A stretch of DNA of 12,789 nucleotides from Pseudomonadota bacterium (GCA_043718025.1 JAYSWN010000064.1:1-12789), one strand, 5' to 3'. Shown: positions 2 to 11,856, numbered from the stretch's first letter. The notes: generated by a model not told the origin, from the sequence alone. Translations and numbers: made by a program.

Positions 2-463
2 TCGGTAAATATTTTTATGCAGATAAAAGGATTTCCCTTTGCCAATCTCAGAACTAGCGCAATGGGTGCTGGTCCAAACCAGGGTGTCTTGGTAAGCGTT
101 GATGAATCGTTGTTTGACTCAAGTCTCAATTTCCAATTGAACGAACTGCAGAAAAAAAACCGAACTTTAGTTTCTTTTCCACCCGACTCACTAGATTACC
201 TTCACTCAAATCTTCTCCCCCTAACCCCCACGGTTCTTTCTGCCGCAAAAATTCTTTATCCCTATCTTCTCCAATCCCATTTAGCCAATATTGAAAAAAT
301 AGATGTCGTGGTGAGGAGAAGTGATGAGTATTGCGACCTAGGGGACGCCTCCTGCGCCAAGCAGAGTGAACTTCAAATTAAGTTCGACCAAGAACTTGCC
401 CGCAGTTTTAACCTGGTAGCTGCCCACGCCTGGGCAAAGATTTTTGAGAGAAAAAAGAGATGA
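2..463 (+). CDS. 5'-truncated CDS; C-terminal soluble domain of unknown protein, possibly the periplasmic tail of a GT-C (ArnT/PMT-like) membrane glycosyltransferase
   Basis: The frame is open from position 2 (SVNIF-MQIKG...) to TGA at 461-463, so the ATG at 17 is probably internal. Alpha/beta pattern ending ...ELARSFNLVAAHAWAKIFERKKR, a close Cys pair (YCDLGDASC), and glycan-locus context. The family call is pattern recognition only. Confidence 0.55.
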   Translation, partial: SVNIFMQIKGFPFANLRTSAMGAGPNQGVLVSVDESLFDSSLNFQLNELQKKNRTLVSFPPDSLDYLHSNLLPLTPTVLSAAKILYPYLLQSHLANIEKIDVVVRRSDEYCDLGDASCAKQSELQIKFDQELARSFNLVAAHAWAKIFERKKR

Positions 464-464
464 G

Positions 465-1178
465 CTAGAGCGAGCCGGAATCTACGTGAATTGTGGTTCC
501 GGTTATGGAGTTGGCTTCGTCGCCCAACAAGAATCTTACCGTATTGGCCGTAGCTTCTAAAGTAGGGAGTTTTTTCAAGCTGGTACGCTTGGCAATTTTT
601 TCCACCTGGTCCACGCCCAGCTTTTCGGTCATTTTTGTTTTCATAAAACCGGGCGACACACAATTGCTGCGAATGCCGCGCGCACCATATTCACGAGCCA
701 CTCCCCTCGAAAAAGATTCCATGGCACCTTTGGTGGCGCCGTACATCGCAAGCCCCTTGTAGCCGGTGTGCGCGGCCAACGAGGTGATGTTTACGATCGA
801 GCCCGCCGTTTCATGCAGCAACATATCGCGCAACACCTGTTTGGTCAGTAGCATGGGAGACAAAACATTGACCATAAACATGTCGTTCAGTCTTTCGAAA
901 CTTGCATTGGTCACCAGGTCGTCATAGGCGTCGGCCGCGTTATTCACTAAACCAAAAACGGGGCCTTTACTTGCCACCTGCTCTTTAAACACCTCCGAAA
1001 CCGCACTAGCGTTGCGCATATCACAAGGTAGGAATTCAAATCTTTTTGAATAACTATTAGGAATAAGCGGTGCCGTTCTACCCATCCCCACCACTCTGTA
1101 TTCAGTACCATCCAACAGATTCTTCACGATCTCATATCCTAGTCCGCCCGAAACGCCGGTAACGAGTATTATGCGCAT
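465..1178 (-). CDS. SDR family oxidoreductase, FabG-like 3-oxoacyl-ACP reductase
   Basis: TGVSGGLG (TGxxxGxG), VNNAA, catalytic Ser (NITS) and YGATK (YxxxK), SPGFMKT, C-terminal ITGTTIHVDSG. Overlaps the upstream ligase by 10 nt. Confidence 0.93.
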   Translation of the reverse strand: MRIILVTGVSGGLGYEIVKNLLDGTEYRVVGMGRTAPLIPNSYSKRFEFLPCDMRNASAVSEVFKEQVASKGPVFGLVNNAADAYDDLVTNASFERLNDMFMVNVLSPMLLTKQVLRDMLLHETAGSIVNITSLAAHTGYKGLAMYGATKGAMESFSRGVAREYGARGIRSNCVSPGFMKTKMTEKLGVDQVEKIAKRTSLKKLPTLEATANTVRFLLGDEANSITGTTIHVDSGSL

Positions 1179-2398
1179 TTTCTTTCCCTTTTCCCGGTTC
1201 TTCCCAGCTGAATCGAATCAACTGATGTAATCTTTCGGGGAATCATCCATCGTGGTAGCGACTGGGCCAACAACTTTGTCAACGCCAGCTCAAAGTTTGC
1301 CGGAGCCAATTCTTTTTTCACAATCACTTGCGCCTCGAGAACATATCCGGTCACAGAGTTTTCTCGCGGTACCACTACCGCGTCGTGAATCCAGGGAACT
1401 CTCAAGATCGCACTTTCAACTTCATGGGGATTGGCGAGGTAGCCGCCGATATTCACCAGGTCGTGCCGTCGTCCCAAAATTTCAAATGACCCGTCCGTAT
1501 TCAAGTTCACTAGATCGCCAGTGGAATACCACTGATCGGAATTACTCTGGTCGGAAACTTCCGCCACAAGTTCACGCTTAAAAAGCAATTCACCAGATTC
1601 AGAAACTCTAACCTTTGACTTGAGCTCTTCGTTAAGCGTGAAGCGGAATCCGTCCGAAACCAAAACTGTCTCTATCTCGGTAGCCGCAAAAATATTCCGA
1701 ATTCTGGCCGAGGGGAACCTCCGCTTGGCTTCCCGCCACGTCTCTTCGTTCAAGCGTTCGCCACCAAAGGTTACCTGTTTCACCGTAGGCAATGGCGCTT
1801 CCAATTTTGTAAAGAGCAGCCGATAGAATGAAGGTGTTGCGGATAGTGCTGAAACAGATTCAGAAATCAGGGTTTTTGCGATCATCTCTGGACTTGCTCC
1901 AAATAGATTGACCAAAGAACCCTGGTTTAAAAGCGTTTGAAAGAAGACGCGCAGGCCCGCAATATGGGTGGGGTTGTAACAAAGCCCCCACGTTGCGTTT
2001 CGGTACCGCGCGCCGGTTCGTACCTCAGAAAGAAGGGTACTTGCGGAATGAACACTTTTCTTAGGAATACCCGTTGTTCCGCTGGAATAGAGATCAATGG
2101 TCCAGTCGGAACGGCTAATGCGCTCCACAAGACTGTCTATAGATTCTGGTCTCCAGACGACCGGCTCGCTCACGGCTTCGTTTGAGTTTTGCAAACTCTT
2201 AAGGTCGGGGTCGGTCAAGGCAATGTGCCGATGGTTCGCTAATGCCGCCAGAAGCCGAACGTACATTTCATACGGGGGTTCGGTACCCAGCTGACTAGAA
2301 GTAGAGTCAACTCGCCTAATATCGTGAATTAGGTCAGCGTAAGTGCGACGCTGATTCCCGGATGGAGAGTGCCAAAAAATTATTTTTTTTGGGGTCAT
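1169..2398 (-). CDS. AMP-binding (ANL superfamily) acyl-CoA/acyl-ACP ligase, short form
   Basis: P-loop YSSGTTGIPK, FGGE, NIFAATE (A5-like), YSTGDL (A7), GRRHDLVNIGG hinge (A8), PHEVES, and GRTGK with the catalytic Lys (A10). ATGA overlap with the ACP gene at 2395-2398. Confidence 0.9.
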   Translation of the reverse strand: MTPKKIIFWHSPSGNQRRTYADLIHDIRRVDSTSSQLGTEPPYEMYVRLLAALANHRHIALTDPDLKSLQNSNEAVSEPVVWRPESIDSLVERISRSDWTIDLYSSGTTGIPKKSVHSASTLLSEVRTGARYRNATWGLCYNPTHIAGLRVFFQTLLNQGSLVNLFGASPEMIAKTLISESVSALSATPSFYRLLFTKLEAPLPTVKQVTFGGERLNEETWREAKRRFPSARIRNIFAATEIETVLVSDGFRFTLNEELKSKVRVSESGELLFKRELVAEVSDQSNSDQWYSTGDLVNLNTDGSFEILGRRHDLVNIGGYLANPHEVESAILRVPWIHDAVVVPRENSVTGYVLEAQVIVKKELAPANFELALTKLLAQSLPRWMIPRKITSVDSIQLGRTGKRERKCA

Positions 2399-2640
2399 GG
2401 CGTCGATGGGCTTTCCAACGCGGCCAACAGTTCACCAATCGTCTTAACAATACCGTTTTGAAAAACATCAATCCCGCTCCGGTCTTCGAGCCGAACGGTT
2501 AACTCAGCCAGATCAAGGGAATCTAGACCAAGATCACCAGAAAGCGTCAGCGAGGCTTCAAATTGATTTCTCAGCGGTAAACCCTTCTTCTCTAAAATGA
2601 AATTTAAAATTTTTTTCACGTCGTCATGGGGCTTAGGCAT
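2395..2640 (-). CDS. Acyl carrier protein (phosphopantetheine-binding)
   Basis: 81 aa with DLGLDSLDLAEL (Ser41 attachment site) and C-terminal KTIGEL. A GGAGG Shine-Dalgarno lies inside the end of the GNAT gene, with an 8-nt overlap. Confidence 0.93.
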   Translation of the reverse strand: MPKPHDDVKKILNFILEKKGLPLRNQFEASLTLSGDLGLDSLDLAELTVRLEDRSGIDVFQNGIVKTIGELLAALESPSTP

Positions 2641-3361
2641 TGTTAGTCCTCCGAAGAAGGTAACGGGCTTCCACTATTTTAAAGCCAAAGGCTTGGTATA
2701 GCCTCCAGATTCCAACGTTATTCGAAGAAATTTCGGTCTTTACCCGATTAAGCCCCTTAATTTTCGCCATCTGTATTGGATGGTAAATCAGGAGCGCCCC
2801 GTAGCCGCGGCCGTCGTAGCTTGTAAAAATACCGCCTAATTTAATTTGAAGATGATTGTTTTCTGCCTCGGTAAAAATGAACCCAACTGATTTTTCACGA
2901 TAGAGAATGGAGTCAATCGGACTACTTTCTAAACCATAACTATTGCGCAGCCAGTTTATGTAGCGGGCAGCGGAGGTTTGAATGCCAAATTTCGGATCTA
3001 AAGCGATACGATCGGTCTGAAAAATACCCGCCTGAATTTGTTGCAGGAGTAGCTCAAACGCATTGATACTGTTGATACGTTCCAGTCTCGATCGCCGCGC
3101 CAACAACTTCACCTCTTCGGGTATTTCCGGACTGGCGATGAGATCCAGGTCTAAAGAGAACTTTGTCTCCACAAAGCGAAAGCCCTGGTCTTCGAGAGAA
3201 TGGATCAACTCCAAATTACCCATCGGAAGGCTGGCCGCAACGTATCGATGACGGCTCCATATTTCTGGATTGATTTCAGGGAGTTTCTCGCTGCCGTCGA
3301 ATCGTAACTCAACGGAGGTGCCCAAAGTTTCAAGATTCCAAGGAGTATCAAAAAGTACCAC
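2633..3361 (-). CDS. GNAT family N-acyltransferase, WecD/RffC-like (nucleotide-aminosugar N-acyltransferase)
   Basis: Motif A YDGRGYG and motif B SSNNVGIWRLYQAFGF. N-terminal PWN..LG, LEDQGFRFVE and central FQTDRIALDPKF...RYINWL resemble the WecD architecture. GTG start with AAGGAG 9 nt upstream. Confidence 0.8.
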   Translation of the reverse strand: MVLFDTPWNLETLGTSVELRFDGSEKLPEINPEIWSRHRYVAASLPMGNLELIHSLEDQGFRFVETKFSLDLDLIASPEIPEEVKLLARRSRLERINSINAFELLLQQIQAGIFQTDRIALDPKFGIQTSAARYINWLRNSYGLESSPIDSILYREKSVGFIFTEAENNHLQIKLGGIFTSYDGRGYGALLIYHPIQMAKIKGLNRVKTEISSNNVGIWRLYQAFGFKIVEARYLLRRTNNA

Positions 3362-3436
3362 TGCGTCATTCTCCTTTATGGGAGGGGCAAAGGGGCGACC
3401 GCGACTTCCAGCGATAAAAAAGAGGAGCCGCCATCA

Positions 3437-3445
3437 TGATAAGAT
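3437..3445 (+). promoter_or_regulatory. Putative extended -10 element (TGaTAAGAT) for the GT2 gene
   Basis: TGn followed by a TAnnnT hexamer about 40 nt upstream of ATG 3487, in a divergent intergenic region. No clear -35. Confidence 0.35.
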
Positions 3446-3486
3446 CAAAAGCTAATCATATGGAGTAATTGTGCCGAAAAAAGGAT

Positions 3487-4485
3487 ATGGCCACCACATT
3501 TTTTCCATCGCCTAAGGTGAACCAGTTGCCCACCGTGTCAGTCGTGGTGCCCGTGTTCCGAAGTGCGACAACTCTTGCAGAGTTGGTTTCACGCTTAAAG
3601 GCCGCACTCCCGGCATGCAGTTCGAAGTTTGAGGTAGTTCTTGTTGTCGATGGAAGTCCCGATGAAAGCTGGGAGATCATTAAAAAATTGAGCGCGCGTC
3701 ATCCCGAAATTGTGGGACTAAAGCTAATGCGCAACTTCGGCCAACACAGCGCGCTACTGGCTGGAATTCGCCGAGCAAAATACGACTACGTGGTTACCCT
3801 AGATGACGACCTACAAACTCCGCCGGAAGAAATTCATAAACTACTGAGCGTCTCTTGTAAAAACGGGGGAGTCGTTTACGGTGTGCCGCGACAAAAAAAA
3901 CATATCTTTTGGAAAAACTGGGGCAGTTCAGTCTTGAGATTAGCCCTTACGGCCACCCTCGGGGCCACCAACGCCCGCAACGCCAGCTCATTCCGCGCTT
4001 TTCCGACAGTTTTGCGAAAGGCCTTCGACCATTACGATGGGGATTTTGTGTATATCGATGTGCTTTTGAATTGGGGGGCAACCCTTTTTCAGGCCGTTCA
4101 AGTTGAGCACGCCCCACGAAAAGCCGGAGAATCAAACTACTCATTCTTTTCGTTGGCTAGACATGCCATCAACATGGTTACCGGATTCAGTTCGCTACCG
4201 CTTCGGGGAGCAACGGCGCTTGGGTTAAGTACCACGTTTCTCGGGGTGGCGATTCTTGCCTGGGTACTGGGACGCTACTGGGTTGAAGGTGGATCAGTTC
4301 CTGGATTTCCCTTCTTGGCTTCAAGCATTGCTATTTTTTCGGGAGTGCAATTATTTGCCCTCGGTGTAATCGGTGAATATATTGCACGCATTCACTTCAG
4401 GGTCATGAAGCGACCTCCGTACGTAGTTTCAGAACAGGTTACAAAAGAAGATGAGATTACTTTTGTAGCCAAAAAACAGGGGTAA
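3487..4485 (+). CDS. GT2 polyprenyl-phosphate glycosyltransferase (GtrB/ArnC/DPM1-like)
   Basis: SVVVPVF, VVDGSPDES, RNFGQHSALLAG, TLDDDLQTPPEEI, RKAGESNYS, two C-terminal hydrophobic helices and GEYIARI...RPPY. The start could instead be TTG 3469. Confidence 0.93.
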   Translation: MATTFFPSPKVNQLPTVSVVVPVFRSATTLAELVSRLKAALPACSSKFEVVLVVDGSPDESWEIIKKLSARHPEIVGLKLMRNFGQHSALLAGIRRAKYDYVVTLDDDLQTPPEEIHKLLSVSCKNGGVVYGVPRQKKHIFWKNWGSSVLRLALTATLGATNARNASSFRAFPTVLRKAFDHYDGDFVYIDVLLNWGATLFQAVQVEHAPRKAGESNYSFFSLARHAINMVTGFSSLPLRGATALGLSTTFLGVAILAWVLGRYWVEGGSVPGFPFLASSIAIFSGVQLFALGVIGEYIARIHFRVMKRPPYVVSEQVTKEDEITFVAKKQG

Positions 4486-4499
4486 GTTCTTCCCAACTC

Positions 4500-6982
<2,483 letters not shown>

Positions 6983-8300: not shown

Positions 8301-8330
8301 AAGCGATCCGACGAAATGATCGTTTTTTTT
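8299..8330 (+). terminator. Intrinsic terminator between convergent genes
   Basis: Stem gcgatc (8303-8308) / gatcgt (8318-8323) with a 9-nt loop and T8 (8323-8330). A4 on the left side could allow weak bidirectional use. Confidence 0.6.
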
Positions 8331-9226
8331 CAACAAGCTTTTATTTTACAGCTTTTGTTCCAGTAATTTGCCATCAGCTGGTTCAATTCTTTTTCATTTT
8401 TCGCAAAAACCAGGTTTACGTCTTTTCCATCGTGAATCAATTCATAGCTCTCGGCAGAAAGCGCCGGAAATACGCGGTGAGGATGAATTTCCCACCCCTT
8501 AAAACCCAACGCTTGTAGGTTAAGAACCAATTCGGTTGCCGAGTGGCCACTTTCCCGCAACGCCGCCGGAAACACCTCGATCAGTAAAAGCACCTCTGGA
8601 TTTCGGCGAATGGTTTCTTTCATTCCCGCCAGCACCGCCACCTCGTGGCCCTGCACATCAATCTTGATCAGTTTTATTTTGCCCTCAGCAATGGAAGTCA
8701 GCGCATCATCGAGCCGAACGATTTCAACGCTCTGAATTGCGGCTTGGCCATTGGCTTCGCTCACCGTTCGGTGATCTCCAAAATTGACTCGGTCAATTTG
8801 GAGGTGGGCGATTCCCGCCTGGTCTCCAACTGCCTTTTGGTGAGCCACGACATTGGCACACTGGTTCTGTTTTAGATTTTGAGTAAGAAGATCAAAGTTG
8901 TGGCTTTCGGGTTCAAAAGCAACGACTGCCCCCTGTTCACCGACGCGGCCACTTAGAAAAACGGAATGCAATCCAAGATTAGCCCCCACATCCACGCAAA
9001 CCGAACCCTTTAGGTCAACCTGCTCAATAAAATTTAAAACCTCCTGCTCATAGGTGTGTTCAAGGTACAGCAATCTCGCCACGATTTGGTCGCGCAGATC
9101 TACGTTGAGCGAACCAAATTTTGTCTGCACGAGCTGATGGGGGGCTAATCGCTGAAGTAGCGGTAAAAAAATTCGGCGCGACGCAAATCTTCGAATTCGT
9201 GCTGCCGACACAGGTAGTAGACCCAA
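8330..9226 (-). CDS. FkbM family SAM-dependent methyltransferase
   Basis: VDVGANLG, VVAFEP, HQKAVGD, VRLDD, LIKIDVQGHEVAVLAGM. TTG start preceded by AGGAGG. Confidence 0.93.
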   Translation of the reverse strand: MGLLPVSAARIRRFASRRIFLPLLQRLAPHQLVQTKFGSLNVDLRDQIVARLLYLEHTYEQEVLNFIEQVDLKGSVCVDVGANLGLHSVFLSGRVGEQGAVVAFEPESHNFDLLTQNLKQNQCANVVAHQKAVGDQAGIAHLQIDRVNFGDHRTVSEANGQAAIQSVEIVRLDDALTSIAEGKIKLIKIDVQGHEVAVLAGMKETIRRNPEVLLLIEVFPAALRESGHSATELVLNLQALGFKGWEIHPHRVFPALSAESYELIHDGKDVNLVFAKNEKELNQLMANYWNKSCKIKAC

Positions 9227-9258
9227 AATAAGCCTCCTAAACGAAAAACTTTTTTTTG

Positions 9259-9267
9259 ATTATAGCA
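9259..9267 (-). promoter_or_regulatory. Consensus extended -10 promoter TGcTATAAT for the FkbM gene
   Basis: Reverse complement of attatagca is TGCTATAAT, lying about 32 nt upstream of the TTG start, with AGGAGG between them. Confidence 0.7.
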
Positions 9268-9317
9268 TTGAACCATGGCCTTAAGCGCGTCACGTCCGCG
9301 ACACTCGGCAACGCGAA

Positions 9318-10214
9318 TCAGGCGCGTCGGTCTTTCAGCAGAGTCGGCAGTCGAATTAGAACTTCAAACATCACCGACAAACTGATGAGTATAGCTTCGG
9401 GTCGGATGAAGAGCTGCTTAAGCGGAGAAAGGAGTAAGTTTCTAATAAAAAAAGGGAGAAGACTTCCTGATTTTCCGTGCAAAAAGTATAGCTGAACTAA
9501 ATTTCTTAACTTCATTCGCTTAAGCCAAAGAAGCTCAACGCCGGGTGCCGGATCGACGTGAACGGCTGTCACCTCCCCCAAAACCACCAGCGCCCCCTGT
9601 TTTTTTCGTAGCCTTTGACAAATTTCATCATCTTCAAAATACATGAAAAAGTCTTCGCGAAACCCATTCAACAGTTTCCAAGTCTCGCTTCGTCCAAACA
9701 GCAGCGCACCAGAAAGATAGCTTACCTCGCGAAGTCTAGGTACTTGCGTCCCCAAAACCTCGCCGGCATGGTGCATTTTCTTTAGATAACCATTAGAAAG
9801 ATCTACATCCCCTCCGGCCGAGCGAATCAAATTATCGCTTCGATTCAAAATTACTGGGCTCACCAACAATGGCCGCGCACTACTATTTAAATATTCAGCC
9901 ATTTTGGAAATGCAATTTGCGGAGAGAATGATGTCGTCTTCGGTAAGCAATATAAATTTTCGTTTCGCCCATTTCAGACCGCGATTCATGCCACCGGTAA
10001 AGCCAGAATTATTGGGCACCGCTAGCAGATTGACCTGATCGTAAGCAGCAACCATGTCCCTTATTTCCGCGGACCGGCCACTCAAATTGTCGACCACCAA
10101 AACCTGCAGATCGACGCCCTTCGACGCCAGAACCGACTCAATGGCCAGTTTTAGTTCGGTGGGCCGGTTATAGCTAAGAATGACTACTGATACTTCGTGC
10201 TTAATTTCCGGCAT
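9318..10214 (-). CDS. GT2 family glycosyltransferase (WbbL/rhamnosyltransferase-like subgroup)
   Basis: VSVVILSYN, VLVVDNLS, NSGFTGGMNRG, LLTEDD, YLSGA, GFREDFFMYFEDDEICQR. 14-nt overlap with the flippase gene. Confidence 0.92.
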   Translation of the reverse strand: MPEIKHEVSVVILSYNRPTELKLAIESVLASKGVDLQVLVVDNLSGRSAEIRDMVAAYDQVNLLAVPNNSGFTGGMNRGLKWAKRKFILLTEDDIILSANCISKMAEYLNSSARPLLVSPVILNRSDNLIRSAGGDVDLSNGYLKKMHHAGEVLGTQVPRLREVSYLSGALLFGRSETWKLLNGFREDFFMYFEDDEICQRLRKKQGALVVLGEVTAVHVDPAPGVELLWLKRMKLRNLVQLYFLHGKSGSLLPFFIRNLLLSPLKQLFIRPEAILISLSVMFEVLIRLPTLLKDRRA

Positions 10215-11856
10215 TGGCCTTCCCGGATTTCACTGCGACGTCTGGGTTGAGATCGCTAACGGTGGAAGAGAGTTTTTTCCAAAAGCTAATTTTTTTGAAT
10301 CGCGGAATTACATATTCACCAAGCAAGCTGCCAAAAAGAATCGGTTTCATCATAAACAGATACAAGATGGTGACGAAGAGAGCTTTAGCGATCATGCCAA
10401 AAAGCCCAAATTGCGACGGCACCATAGAAAAGCCGAAAGAGACGATCAGAACAAATAACGTGCGCCATGCCCACGCCAAGTGGGGCTGCATAACTTCTGC
10501 GAGCGAAACATCAAGGGCTAAGCATAAGCGGTACAATGACCAAGGAAGTGAAACCAAAATGATGGTGGCCGTGCTGGCCCAGACCGTTCCGAGACTCCCG
10601 GCATATTTAGTTAGCGGGATAGCGAGTAGCACCGTGAAGATTCCGGCCAACAGTGGGGCCACTACCGAATCACGATGGTAGCCAAGCCATAAACAGCCAA
10701 AGGCGGAACAAGCGGCTAACTGCCGAATTATAAGATTGATTCCCAGGGCGATGGTTAGCGCGTTACCGCCGTAGAACTCCCCTCCGACCCACCAGGGAAT
10801 AAACTGGGAATTTACCGATAGGATGGCCGCGACCAAAAAACCACTCAAAATTAAAGTGATTTGTACGATTCCTGAAAAAATTCGGAGGAAATTTTTCTTT
10901 CTATCCTCGGACACGATCTGAAACATGGTCGGAGTTGCCACACCGACAATTTGATTCGGTAAGTTGCTGGCAATGCCAAACAGCTTGTTCGTCATGGAAT
11001 AGACCGAAACCTGAGTTGGACCGGCCACCTTGCCAATAATTGTCAGATCGTTGGAGCTGGTTAGGATGTGGGTGAAATTTCCGATCATCAACCATTTTCC
11101 TTTTTCCCAATAACTACGAAATGGAATTTTGCCCAAATTGAAGTGAACCGCCCTAAAAACGAAGGGGAACTGACTCCAAATTCTAAAGCCAGCGCATAGG
11201 GGCACCACCAATTCTGCAACAGCCCAGCCAATGGCGAGCGATTTGATGCCGTAGCCGTTGGTGGCGAGAAGGTAGGTTATCGAAGTGCTGATCGTCCACG
11301 CAACCAATTGAAAGCGGGCTACTTGAATTTGGTCCTGAAGTCCCATCAAAACGTTGGTCAGGTATTTGAGAAAGAAAGTGCAAACGAGAACGCCAAGAAC
11401 GAAAAAGCAAATGCCGGTGTGCCTCTGCATCTCGGCTGGAAGCAGTATCCACGCTATCCCGCAACCGCCTAGCAGAACGGGGAGCTGAATGAGGCTGACT
11501 AGAGTAAAATTTCCAATGATTGCGCCGAAGCCAGCGTCTCGTTTTGCAGAAGCCACTTGCCCGGAGAGGGCGGCCACTTCCCGAACGAAAAGGATGCTCA
11601 TGCCAAAATCAAATATTCCGATTATCCCAATTATTTGGCCAGTGCCTAACCAGCTGCCGATCGCCGAGGCCCCCACTTCACGCACGAGAATGGGCGTAAC
11701 CGCGAGTCCGCTCATCAACATGACAATTTGGTTGAAGTACCCCATGCCAATTGCGAATAGAAAATTTTTGCTTCGCGAGGGCTGTTTTGATCCGGATTGC
11801 TTCAAAAGAGTAAATCCCTTTATGGCCGAAGGTTGCTTAAGAAATCTGTTGTTCAA
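10201..11856 (-). CDS. Wzx-like oligosaccharide flippase (MOP superfamily)
   Basis: About 12-14 hydrophobic segments, with TPILVREVG..G, DFGMS...R and D..IIGKVAGP.QV.VYS patterns typical of Wzx/PST exporters. The start is uncertain (TTG 11856 or TTG 11805). Confidence 0.88.
   Translation of the reverse strand: MNNRFLKQPSAIKGFTLLKQSGSKQPSRSKNFLFAIGMGYFNQIVMLMSGLAVTPILVREVGASAIGSWLGTGQIIGIIGIFDFGMSILFVREVAALSGQVASAKRDAGFGAIIGNFTLVSLIQLPVLLGGCGIAWILLPAEMQRHTGICFFVLGVLVCTFFLKYLTNVLMGLQDQIQVARFQLVAWTISTSITYLLATNGYGIKSLAIGWAVAELVVPLCAGFRIWSQFPFVFRAVHFNLGKIPFRSYWEKGKWLMIGNFTHILTSSNDLTIIGKVAGPTQVSVYSMTNKLFGIASNLPNQIVGVATPTMFQIVSEDRKKNFLRIFSGIVQITLILSGFLVAAILSVNSQFIPWWVGGEFYGGNALTIALGINLIIRQLAACSAFGCLWLGYHRDSVVAPLLAGIFTVLLAIPLTKYAGSLGTVWASTATIILVSLPWSLYRLCLALDVSLAEVMQPHLAWAWRTLFVLIVSFGFSMVPSQFGLFGMIAKALFVTILYLFMMKPILFGSLLGEYVIPRFKKISFWKKLSSTVSDLNPDVAVKSGKANAGN

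Follow-up and report, generated by a model that had tools for sequence, protein, structure and literature searches.

The window analysed here (12,789 nucleotides, the entire contig C195 of a Pseudomonadota genome, GCA_043718025.1 JAYSWN010000064.1:1-12789) carries at positions 465 to 4,485 a cassette of four genes, encoding a GNAT-type N-acyltransferase, an acyl carrier protein (ACP), an ANL-family adenylating ligase and a short-chain dehydrogenase/reductase (SDR), next to a gene for a family 2 glycosyltransferase (GT2). Our results show that these five genes are two modules that meet at the GNAT, one being the ACP-ligase-SDR trio and the other of the type WecE-acyltransferase-GT2. The trio is a common, fixed module, found mostly in glycan clusters, and very probably supplies the acyl group for an amino sugar. 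We propose that here it would deliver an omega-hydroxyacyl-ACP from which the GNAT acylates dTDP-4-amino-4,6-dideoxygalactose (dTDP-Fuc4N), and that the GT2 would transfer the product to undecaprenyl phosphate (Und-P); to this complete chain we assign a probability of roughly 0.4. Both the components and their overall logic have precedents, so the locus is a rewiring of them, not a new kind of system.

The coordinates of the open reading frames (ORFs) confirm the arrangement described in the initial annotation. All four cassette genes lie on the minus strand, the GNAT at 3361-2633, the ACP at 2640-2395, the ligase at 2398-1169 and the SDR at 1178-465, with overlaps of 8 nt (2633-2640), 4 nt (2395-2398) and 10 nt (1169-1178), and the GT2 (3469..4485, plus strand) stands back to back with them. 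The GNAT starts with GTG, with AGGAG 9 nt upstream, and the GT2 with TTG, an ATG at 3487 being also possible. Between both starts there are 107 nt (3362..3468, no strand assigned) that presumably contain the promoters of either side; as the GT2 is divergent from the GNAT across this stretch, it lies outside the cassette transcript. All five proteins pass the Pfam cut-off for a named family, and none reaches a curated NCBIfam cut-off.

To describe the spread of the trio we collected homologues of the ligase. Of 7,997 candidates scored, 1,266 reached E<=1e-20, with Bacteroidota, Bacillota and Thermotogota among the sources (sizes of the ligase and GNAT families come from word-index searches, about 8,000 candidates being scored for each), which does not support a rarity of the acyl module; what is rare, and unproven, is the coupling of all five genes. 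We then compared 97 other ligase loci, namely one from a named genome, 79 from metagenomes (the best 79 of 565 confirmed), 16 from genomes of the same phylum and one on an Azospirillum plasmid; the ligase family profile scores at least 300 bits in 82 of them. The ACP gene lies directly upstream of the ligase in 71 of the 72 loci with enough flank and the SDR gene directly downstream in 78 of 78. Since 69 of the 70 homologous loci that extend 300 nt or more to either side keep the complete order, it is beyond chance. For 42 loci the flanks reach 2 kb or more to either side. A glycan gene occurs in 33 of these, a DegT aminotransferase in 24, an acyltransferase within 3.5 kb in 33 and a β-ketoacyl-ACP synthase III (KAS III) in 13; in 28 the fetched flanks show an acyltransferase but no KAS III. 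Dereplication at 90% (n=30) yields 23, 16, 23, 10 and 19, respectively. Supported, therefore, are an association of the trio with amino-sugar acyltransferases, often without a KAS III, and its expected linkage to glycan loci (33/42); linkage to GtrB-like genes as a general feature does not, with a single case in 97 ligase loci.

We also compared the slot directly upstream of the ACP. In dereplicated loci, leaving out the window and the single locus lacking an ACP, it holds an acyltransferase in 27 of 45 cases (19 left-handed β-helix (LbH) enzymes, 7 GNATs and 1 of AAC(3) type) and a KAS III in another 8, against 21 of 357 for the same kinds of gene among the other same-strand genes, a background that may be understated because unannotated singletons were counted as 'other'. 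Within one group of ligases at 90% identity, the partner can be an AAC(3), a GNAT or an LbH enzyme. This argues that the trio acts as a portable acyl donor whose acceptor slot is occupied in the window by the GNAT. A blastn search with a homologous ligase gene found no match in E. coli genomes, so no O-antigen of known structure is tied to the trio, and we found no description of the trio in glycan loci in the open-access literature or in bioRxiv. Some copies lie away from any obvious glycan cluster: one is behind rho and a pyruvate:ferredoxin oxidoreductase (L063), another follows a GINT1-like protein and a GNAT (L068). On plasmid p3 of the cultured strain Azospirillum brasilense Sp 7 (L124, 6554-14946) a related trio, whose SDR is 45% identical to TmlS, is found with an alpha/beta hydrolase and a KAS III between pseI and flagellin.

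What the trio makes was approached through its kinship to the priming cassettes of mupirocin (MupQ/MupS/MacpD) and thiomarinol (TmlQ/TmlS/TacpD, which are here the ligase, SDR and ACP genes of the thiomarinol plasmid pTML1, named by gene order and annotation). The SDR (465..1178, minus strand; 237 aa, Pfam adh_short_C2) has the catalytic residues N104/S133/Y146/K150, and R34 suggests, by the established SDR rule, that its cofactor would be NADPH. It carries GYKGLxMY and IAKRTSL where FabG has GNxGQxxY; the first motif is present in 48 of 48 sequences of the SDR family, its counterpart in MupS is GHSGLTVY, and the FabG-type SDRs of the same genome show GNAGQ. MupS (4yxf) ranks fourth among the PDB matches of the SDR, above E. 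coli FabG, and with the family profile TmlS reaches 167.3 bits, more than any PDB chain does (162.4 for the best FabG, nearly tied with 160.1 for MupS). In a tree of 34 rows, from which one over-long paralogue was left out, TmlS shares a clade with the SDRs of the window and of the trio (support 97/97), with housekeeping FabG outside. After removal of six long-branch rows, an approximately unbiased (AU) test on the remaining 28 rejected a tree that joins the trio SDRs to FabG (p=0.026). We also considered that the window SDR could be the housekeeping FabG and discarded it, the housekeeping gene being on contig C185 behind fabH/fabD-like ORFs. By its sequence, the SDR belongs to the MupS/TmlS lineage and not to FabG.

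The ligase (1169..2398, minus strand) is a short ANL enzyme of 409 aa with Pfam AMP-binding and AMP-binding_C domains. Its catalytic motifs are intact (SGTTGxPK 106-113, NPTH 142-145, E241, TGD 293-295, R310, K403), and the His-type NPTH motif, with no Asp, rules out an amino-acid adenylation domain. A structure model (pLDDT 90.3) retrieved generic ANL enzymes only in a fold search, and ESM Atlas matches had generic names only. The family profile of the ligase, on the other hand, scores TmlQ at 187.7 bits versus 121.8 for the best ANL enzyme in the PDB, the best match of TmlQ in the genome is the window ligase (1e-24, the next being 6e-6), and a quick tree without bootstrap places the window, the trio ligases and TmlQ in one clade (SH-aLRT 98). 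Taken together with the TmlS grouping and MupS-like motifs of the SDR, this suggests a reduction of malonyl- or succinyl-CoA of the MupQ/MupS/MacpD type. The ACP (2395..2640, minus strand; 81 aa, stand-alone, Pfam PP-binding 26.8 bits) has its predicted phosphopantetheine site at Ser41 (DSL; codon 2520-2518), invariant in 41 of 41 aligned trio ACPs.

Other ligases of this kinship occur in different settings. Same-phylum loci (L130-L140) contain ligases with 30-40% identity to TmlQ, for the most part arranged ACP-SDR-ligase, whose partner SDRs belong to a clade not related to TmlS; they represent a second, mosaic cassette type. A Bacillus mycoides plasmid (L186, 5237-6945) has an ACP and a TmlQ-clade ligase with no SDR listed adjacent, and similar ligases are found on many plasmids of the Bacillus cereus group.

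The GNAT (2633..3361, minus strand; 242 aa, Pfam Acetyltransf_1 26.7 bits) is of WecD type, as the initial annotation had it: its model (pLDDT 94.6) has WecD 2fs5 as top Foldseek match (E 4.8e-15, TM 0.73/0.79). Its scores against the WecD models of NCBIfam stay below the cut-offs (41.3 versus 219 for NF008212, 28.6 versus 195.1 for TIGR02382), and it represents an unnamed subfamily with the motifs FxTDRIALDPxFG..RYxNW and ISSNN and with 173 homologues at E<=1e-12. It is WecD-like, not WecD, just as the GT2 is of ArnC type and not ArnC. It has Asp183 where Gln or Arg is usual; this residue and the GxG loop discussed below do not decide between a CoA and an ACP donor. A complex prediction of GNAT and ACP scored 0.27 for a mark of 0.32 and was counted neither for nor against binding.

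Through the GNAT family we found nine loci (5 in 400 genomes, 3 in 301 genomes, and one of two plasmids), in 6 of which an ArnC-like GT2 lies within two genes of the GNAT. An ACP and ligase module, a GNAT and an ArnC-like GT2 are joined in two other genomes. One contains the closest genomic homologue of the GNAT (E 5e-56), in the order DegT...ACP-ligase-LuxE-LuxC-GNAT-FabZ-ArnC-like GT2 (L147; 7727-17154, G301:C12), and the other has the order ArnC-like GT2-ligase-ACP-Fe-ADH-LuxE-LuxC-GNAT opposite a WecE (L182; 4443-11855, G095:C104; Fe-ADH, iron-dependent alcohol dehydrogenase); their ACPs are labelled from BLAST similarity and a DS motif, without a Pfam match. Furthermore, the GNAT protein nearest to that of the window (P0156, 36%) and one of the close ligases (P0003, 45%) each derive from a single contig of 16,829 nt, which may point to a second copy of the window arrangement.

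The GT2 (338 aa) is a predicted polyprenyl-phosphate glycosyltransferase of the ArnC/GtrB type that had been proposed for it. It has full-length PDB matches to ArnC (E 3e-44) and GtrB sll0501 (E 2.5e-35), DDD at 112-114 and, by hydropathy, two C-terminal hydrophobic helices (250-268, 283-301); with 165 bits it is below the NCBIfam cut-off for ArnC (529). Orthologues at 46-52% identity were found in eleven loci, none of which has the trio. In 9 of the 10 orthologue loci tested, the aminotransferase next door scores above the WecE cut-off, and large membrane proteins, some with PMT or DUF2142 matches, are frequent around them. Because these orthologues travel with WecE, the donor of the GT2 is likely to be a dTDP-Fuc4N derivative. 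An LbH acyltransferase is beside the GT2 in loci of three of the 5 genomes with close orthologues and in two further loci; a GNAT profile (A3) found no match in those 5 genomes. The link of the cassette to the GT2 runs through the GNAT, not through the trio.

The host genome (4.14 Mb, 92% complete) has genes that could supply the sugar, as had been anticipated for a nucleotide-activated amino sugar. It encodes RmlB (C42), two phosphopantetheinyl transferases and a WecE on contig C76 (541 bits for a cut-off of 375, the other DegT genes being unscored) that is 54-60% identical to the aminotransferases beside the GT2 orthologues. The sole full-length WecD-like match in the genome is the window GNAT. 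Around the C76 WecE (L159, 1986-12849) there is no adjacent WecD; its neighbours are proteins of 7 to 13 helices without a Pfam match, which are candidate acceptor enzymes for an Und-P sugar, an Acyl_transf_3 protein and a flavoprotein. Elsewhere the genome contains other sugar-acylation loci, and its genes of the DegT family, counted by near full-length matches, number nine. In a large glycan locus (L154, 9966-14636, G000:C102) a second ACP-like ORF of 85 aa neighbours a 160-aa ORF, a 634-aa ORF that may be FkbH-like, a methyltransferase and a DegT gene. No close match of the ligase, GNAT or GT2 was found in the three genomes of the same genus that were searched.

We infer the catalytic steps of the proposed pathway from the genes, motifs, folds, kinship and neighbourhoods that were observed. 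RmlB and WecE, whose genes are present and whose connection to the locus is presumed, would produce dTDP-Fuc4N. The ligase, as its kinship to TmlQ suggests, would adenylate the free carboxylate of malonyl-CoA (or succinyl-CoA) and load it on Ser41 of the ACP, and the SDR, given its kinship to MupS and TmlS, would use NADPH to reduce the CoA end to 3-hydroxypropionyl-ACP (or 4-hydroxybutyryl-ACP), a ketosynthase being unneeded. The GNAT, judging from its fold and from its slot of acyl consumer, would then form the amide on dTDP-Fuc4N, and the GT2 would make Und-P-Fuc4N(acyl), from which, after flipping, a membrane enzyme of the GT-C type would hand on the sugar to a glycan or protein of the cell surface. 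Taken separately, passage of the product through the window GT2 is quite likely, use of the ACP by the GNAT as acceptor is likely, and chemistry of the MupQ/S type is reasonably probable on the kinship described. The acyl group may be 3-hydroxypropionyl, 4-hydroxybutyryl or another one.

Several observations weigh against this pathway. For the SDR, the top PDB match is Acinetobacter FabG, above MupS, its best NCBIfam matches are FabG models, all under cut-off, and the AU rejection of a FabG grouping is modest. The ligase, compared here with TmlQ, is only 23% identical to it and falls in a sister subfamily. Moreover, the ligases closest to TmlQ (35-40%) are paired with a different SDR clade, so the substrate cannot be read from kinship. 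Nor is the ACP specifically like MacpD, which ranks 60 among its PDB matches (E 1e-4), and with 81 aa it lacks the C-terminal extension of the 111-aa TacpD. The GxG loop that binds the CoA pyrophosphate is kept in the GNAT family (G186 in 73 and G188 in 76 of 79), and an ACP and ligase are absent within 20 kb in 5 of the 6 loci with GNAT and GT2, which means that WecD-like enzymes of greater distance do without an ACP of their own. Conversely, the window GNAT family (profile A2, E<1e-3) is found in 0 of the 97 ligase loci, a deeper profile giving one marginal match of 19 bits, and a distant full-length ArnC-like GT2 in only 1 of them, many of these loci being short. Finally, the host WecE is unlinked to the cassette (C76 versus C195), and GtrA (PF04138) was not found in the 92% complete genome.

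These points feed three other explanations. The GNAT could be an ordinary acetyl-CoA-dependent WecD making dTDP-Fuc4NAc for the GT2, with the trio serving another acyltransferase and sugar or being a passenger. Loci with WecE, a WecD-like and an ArnC-like enzyme and no ACP whatsoever do exist (L148, L149, L168-L170), the GxG loop and the missing GNAT family in trio loci fit such an enzyme, and the other DegT genes and sugar-acylation loci of the genome could offer the trio alternative clients. Nevertheless, the 8-nt overlap with the ACP places the GNAT in a slot where 35 of 45 loci have an acyltransferase or a KAS III, no other acyltransferase is present on the contig, the closest genomic homologue of the GNAT is again within an operon with ACP and ligase, and the ACP-free examples are more distant (60-95 bits with the A3 profile, versus 222-256). 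We thus consider this explanation improbable, though the least so of the three. A different acyl supply, in line with the initial annotation, would have the ligase charge the ACP with a free oxo-acid such as acetoacetate or pyruvate, a FabG-like SDR reduce it to 3-hydroxybutyryl or lactyl, and the GNAT transfer it. The NPTH motif is of the His, non-amino-acid type, the best single PDB match and the below-cut-off NCBIfam matches of the SDR are FabG, and excerpts of PMC9912281 report 3-hydroxybutyryl amides on glycans. Against this, the SDR lacks the GNxGQ of FabG and has GYKGL in all 48 sequences, like the GHSGL of MupS, it groups with TmlS, the FabG grouping being rejected (p=0.026), and the ligase groups with TmlQ; reduction of a dicarboxylyl-CoA is indicated instead, and we find the oxo-acid route unlikely.

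The destination of the sugar might also differ. Clusters of the Wzx/Wzy type that lack an ArnC-like GT2 make up most of the trio loci, the contig itself carries a flippase operon at a distance of about 5 kb from the cassette, the GT2 is encoded on the opposite strand, and GtrA was not found in the genome; the acylated nucleotide sugar could accordingly enter a Wzx/Wzy repeat unit through ordinary glycosyltransferases (such as those of the wzx-GT2-FkbM operon at 11856-8330), leaving the divergent GT2 to serve another sugar. As the closest orthologues of the GT2 adjoin WecE and an acyltransferase, and the GNAT family adjoins ArnC-like GT2s in 6 of 9 loci, we hold this to be the least probable of the alternatives, and retain transfer of the acylated Fuc4N to Und-P by the window GT2 as the preferred reading.

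The rest of the contig contains pyrG, kdsB and a second glycan operon. The kdsB-pyrG genes (4500-6982, minus strand) converge on the GT2, with stop codons 14 nt apart, so that the GT2 and the cassette sit at the end of a housekeeping gene pair for lipopolysaccharide and CTP. The second glycan operon (8330-11856, minus strand) encodes a Wzx-type flippase, a GT2 and an FkbM-type methyltransferase. At the left end, a 153-aa open frame (2-463, plus strand) runs off the contig, with its stop 1 nt from that of the SDR; it has no Pfam or NCBIfam match and a lower GC content (0.435). No aminotransferase, GtrA, GT-C or ketosynthase was found among the 15 ORFs scanned on the contig; GtrA and GT-C are thus absent from it, ArnE/F-type flippases not having been searched. 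Misassembly at the GNAT/GT2 junction was considered, and Logan contig coverage gave no sign of it: contigs from two runs cover 662/663-6500 with one letter different, although these runs are possibly the source of the DNA and hence not independent. Runs X3 and X5 cover short pieces of the window only, and one Logan contig reaches 8.5 kb beyond its left end.

Acyl groups on 4-amino-6-deoxy sugars help to set serotype and phage recognition, according to excerpts of PMC6519341 and PMC3441752, and in the portions of the literature compared their supply is assigned by homology only. Kinship to MupQ and MupS would predict a conversion of malonyl- or succinyl-CoA to omega-hydroxyacyl-ACP for more than 1,000 ACP-ligase-SDR loci that are currently annotated as 'AMP-binding protein' and '3-oxoacyl-ACP reductase', and the locus offers an in vitro test case for whether a WecD-fold GNAT uses acyl-ACP or not. 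More tentatively, and with somewhat less confidence than in the chain proposed for the window, MupQ/MupS-type cassettes, of which the characterised examples all belong to antibiotic polyketide clusters, might quite generally, and in very many bacteria, provide the 3-hydroxypropionyl or 4-hydroxybutyryl amides of surface sugars, feeding unrelated folds (LbH, several GNATs, AAC(3) type), with an ACP-using WecD-fold GNAT and Und-P routing to a GT-C acceptor in this instance. On bacterial glycans, 4-hydroxybutyryl amides do occur, as excerpts of PMC3210612 and PMC9912281 indicate. Among Vibrio O-antigens, 3-hydroxypropionyl-perosamine is known.

Compared with known systems, the trio is like the mupirocin and thiomarinol priming cassettes in its adjacent ANL ligase, SDR and stand-alone ACP with phosphopantetheine serine, and like TmlS in the clade of its SDR, while its ligase lies in a larger clade with TmlQ, as a sister subfamily. 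The bis-thioester mechanism of such cassettes, and a TmlQ/S route from succinyl to 4-hydroxybutyryl, were reportedly described by Walker et al. in 2020. For MupQ/MupS/MacpD, conversion of malonyl-CoA to 3-hydroxypropionate is stated in the excerpts of PMC10098928. Unlike either cassette, the window has no polyketide synthase (PKS) or MmpF-type ketosynthase and its partner is a sugar N-acyltransferase; unlike MacpD-type ACPs, the window ACP has no C-terminal extension, and no ketosynthase or PKS accompanies it on the contig. The window cassette is likely to work like a MupQ/S priming cassette, yet not as a PKS starter cassette.

Among glycan systems, the tetronate branch of Vibrio cholerae O1 (VC0248-VC0252, wbeK-O) comprises an ACP, a ligase, an Fe-ADH and LuxC/E, and the window resembles it in that an omega-hydroxy acyl group, proposed to be made without a ketosynthase, would serve to N-acylate a 4-amino-4,6-dideoxyhexose. 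It differs in having an SDR instead of Fe-ADH, LuxC and LuxE, which are absent from the contig, and a WecD-fold GNAT. The L147 (LuxE, LuxC, FabZ) and L182 (Fe-ADH, LuxE, LuxC) modules look like this Vibrio branch routed to Und-P, and their ligases fall outside the window ligase clade. The Vibrio genes are described, in the excerpts of PMC3441752, as a five-gene tetronate group with WbeL (471 aa). The window is also like the R-group genes wfpC-G of Flavobacterium psychrophilum, where a PglD-like acyltransferase would bring an unusual acyl group from a dedicated ACP onto a UDP-amino sugar, a transfer that is predicted only, both in excerpts of PMC6519341 and, for ACP to amino sugar, in those of the FlavoTyper preprint. 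In contrast to the window, these genes use KAS III enzymes, a ketoreductase and an LbH acyltransferase, no adenylating ligase being named in the excerpts. The viosamine island of Pseudomonas likewise places an unusual, ACP-dependent acyl group on an amino sugar; unlike wfpC-G and vio, the window contig has no KAS III, and one is present in 13 of the 42 homologous loci. E. coli WecD (RffC), whose donor is acetyl-CoA, shares its two-domain fold with the GNAT, as well as the presence of WecE in the genome, whereas the GNAT is 17% identical to it, below the family cut-off, outside an enterobacterial common antigen cluster and coupled to an ACP module. Finally, the GT2 resembles ArnC and GtrB in its full-length homology, DxD-type motif and two C-terminal helices, and departs from ArnC in its score below the cut-off and in a contig free of arn and gtrA genes.

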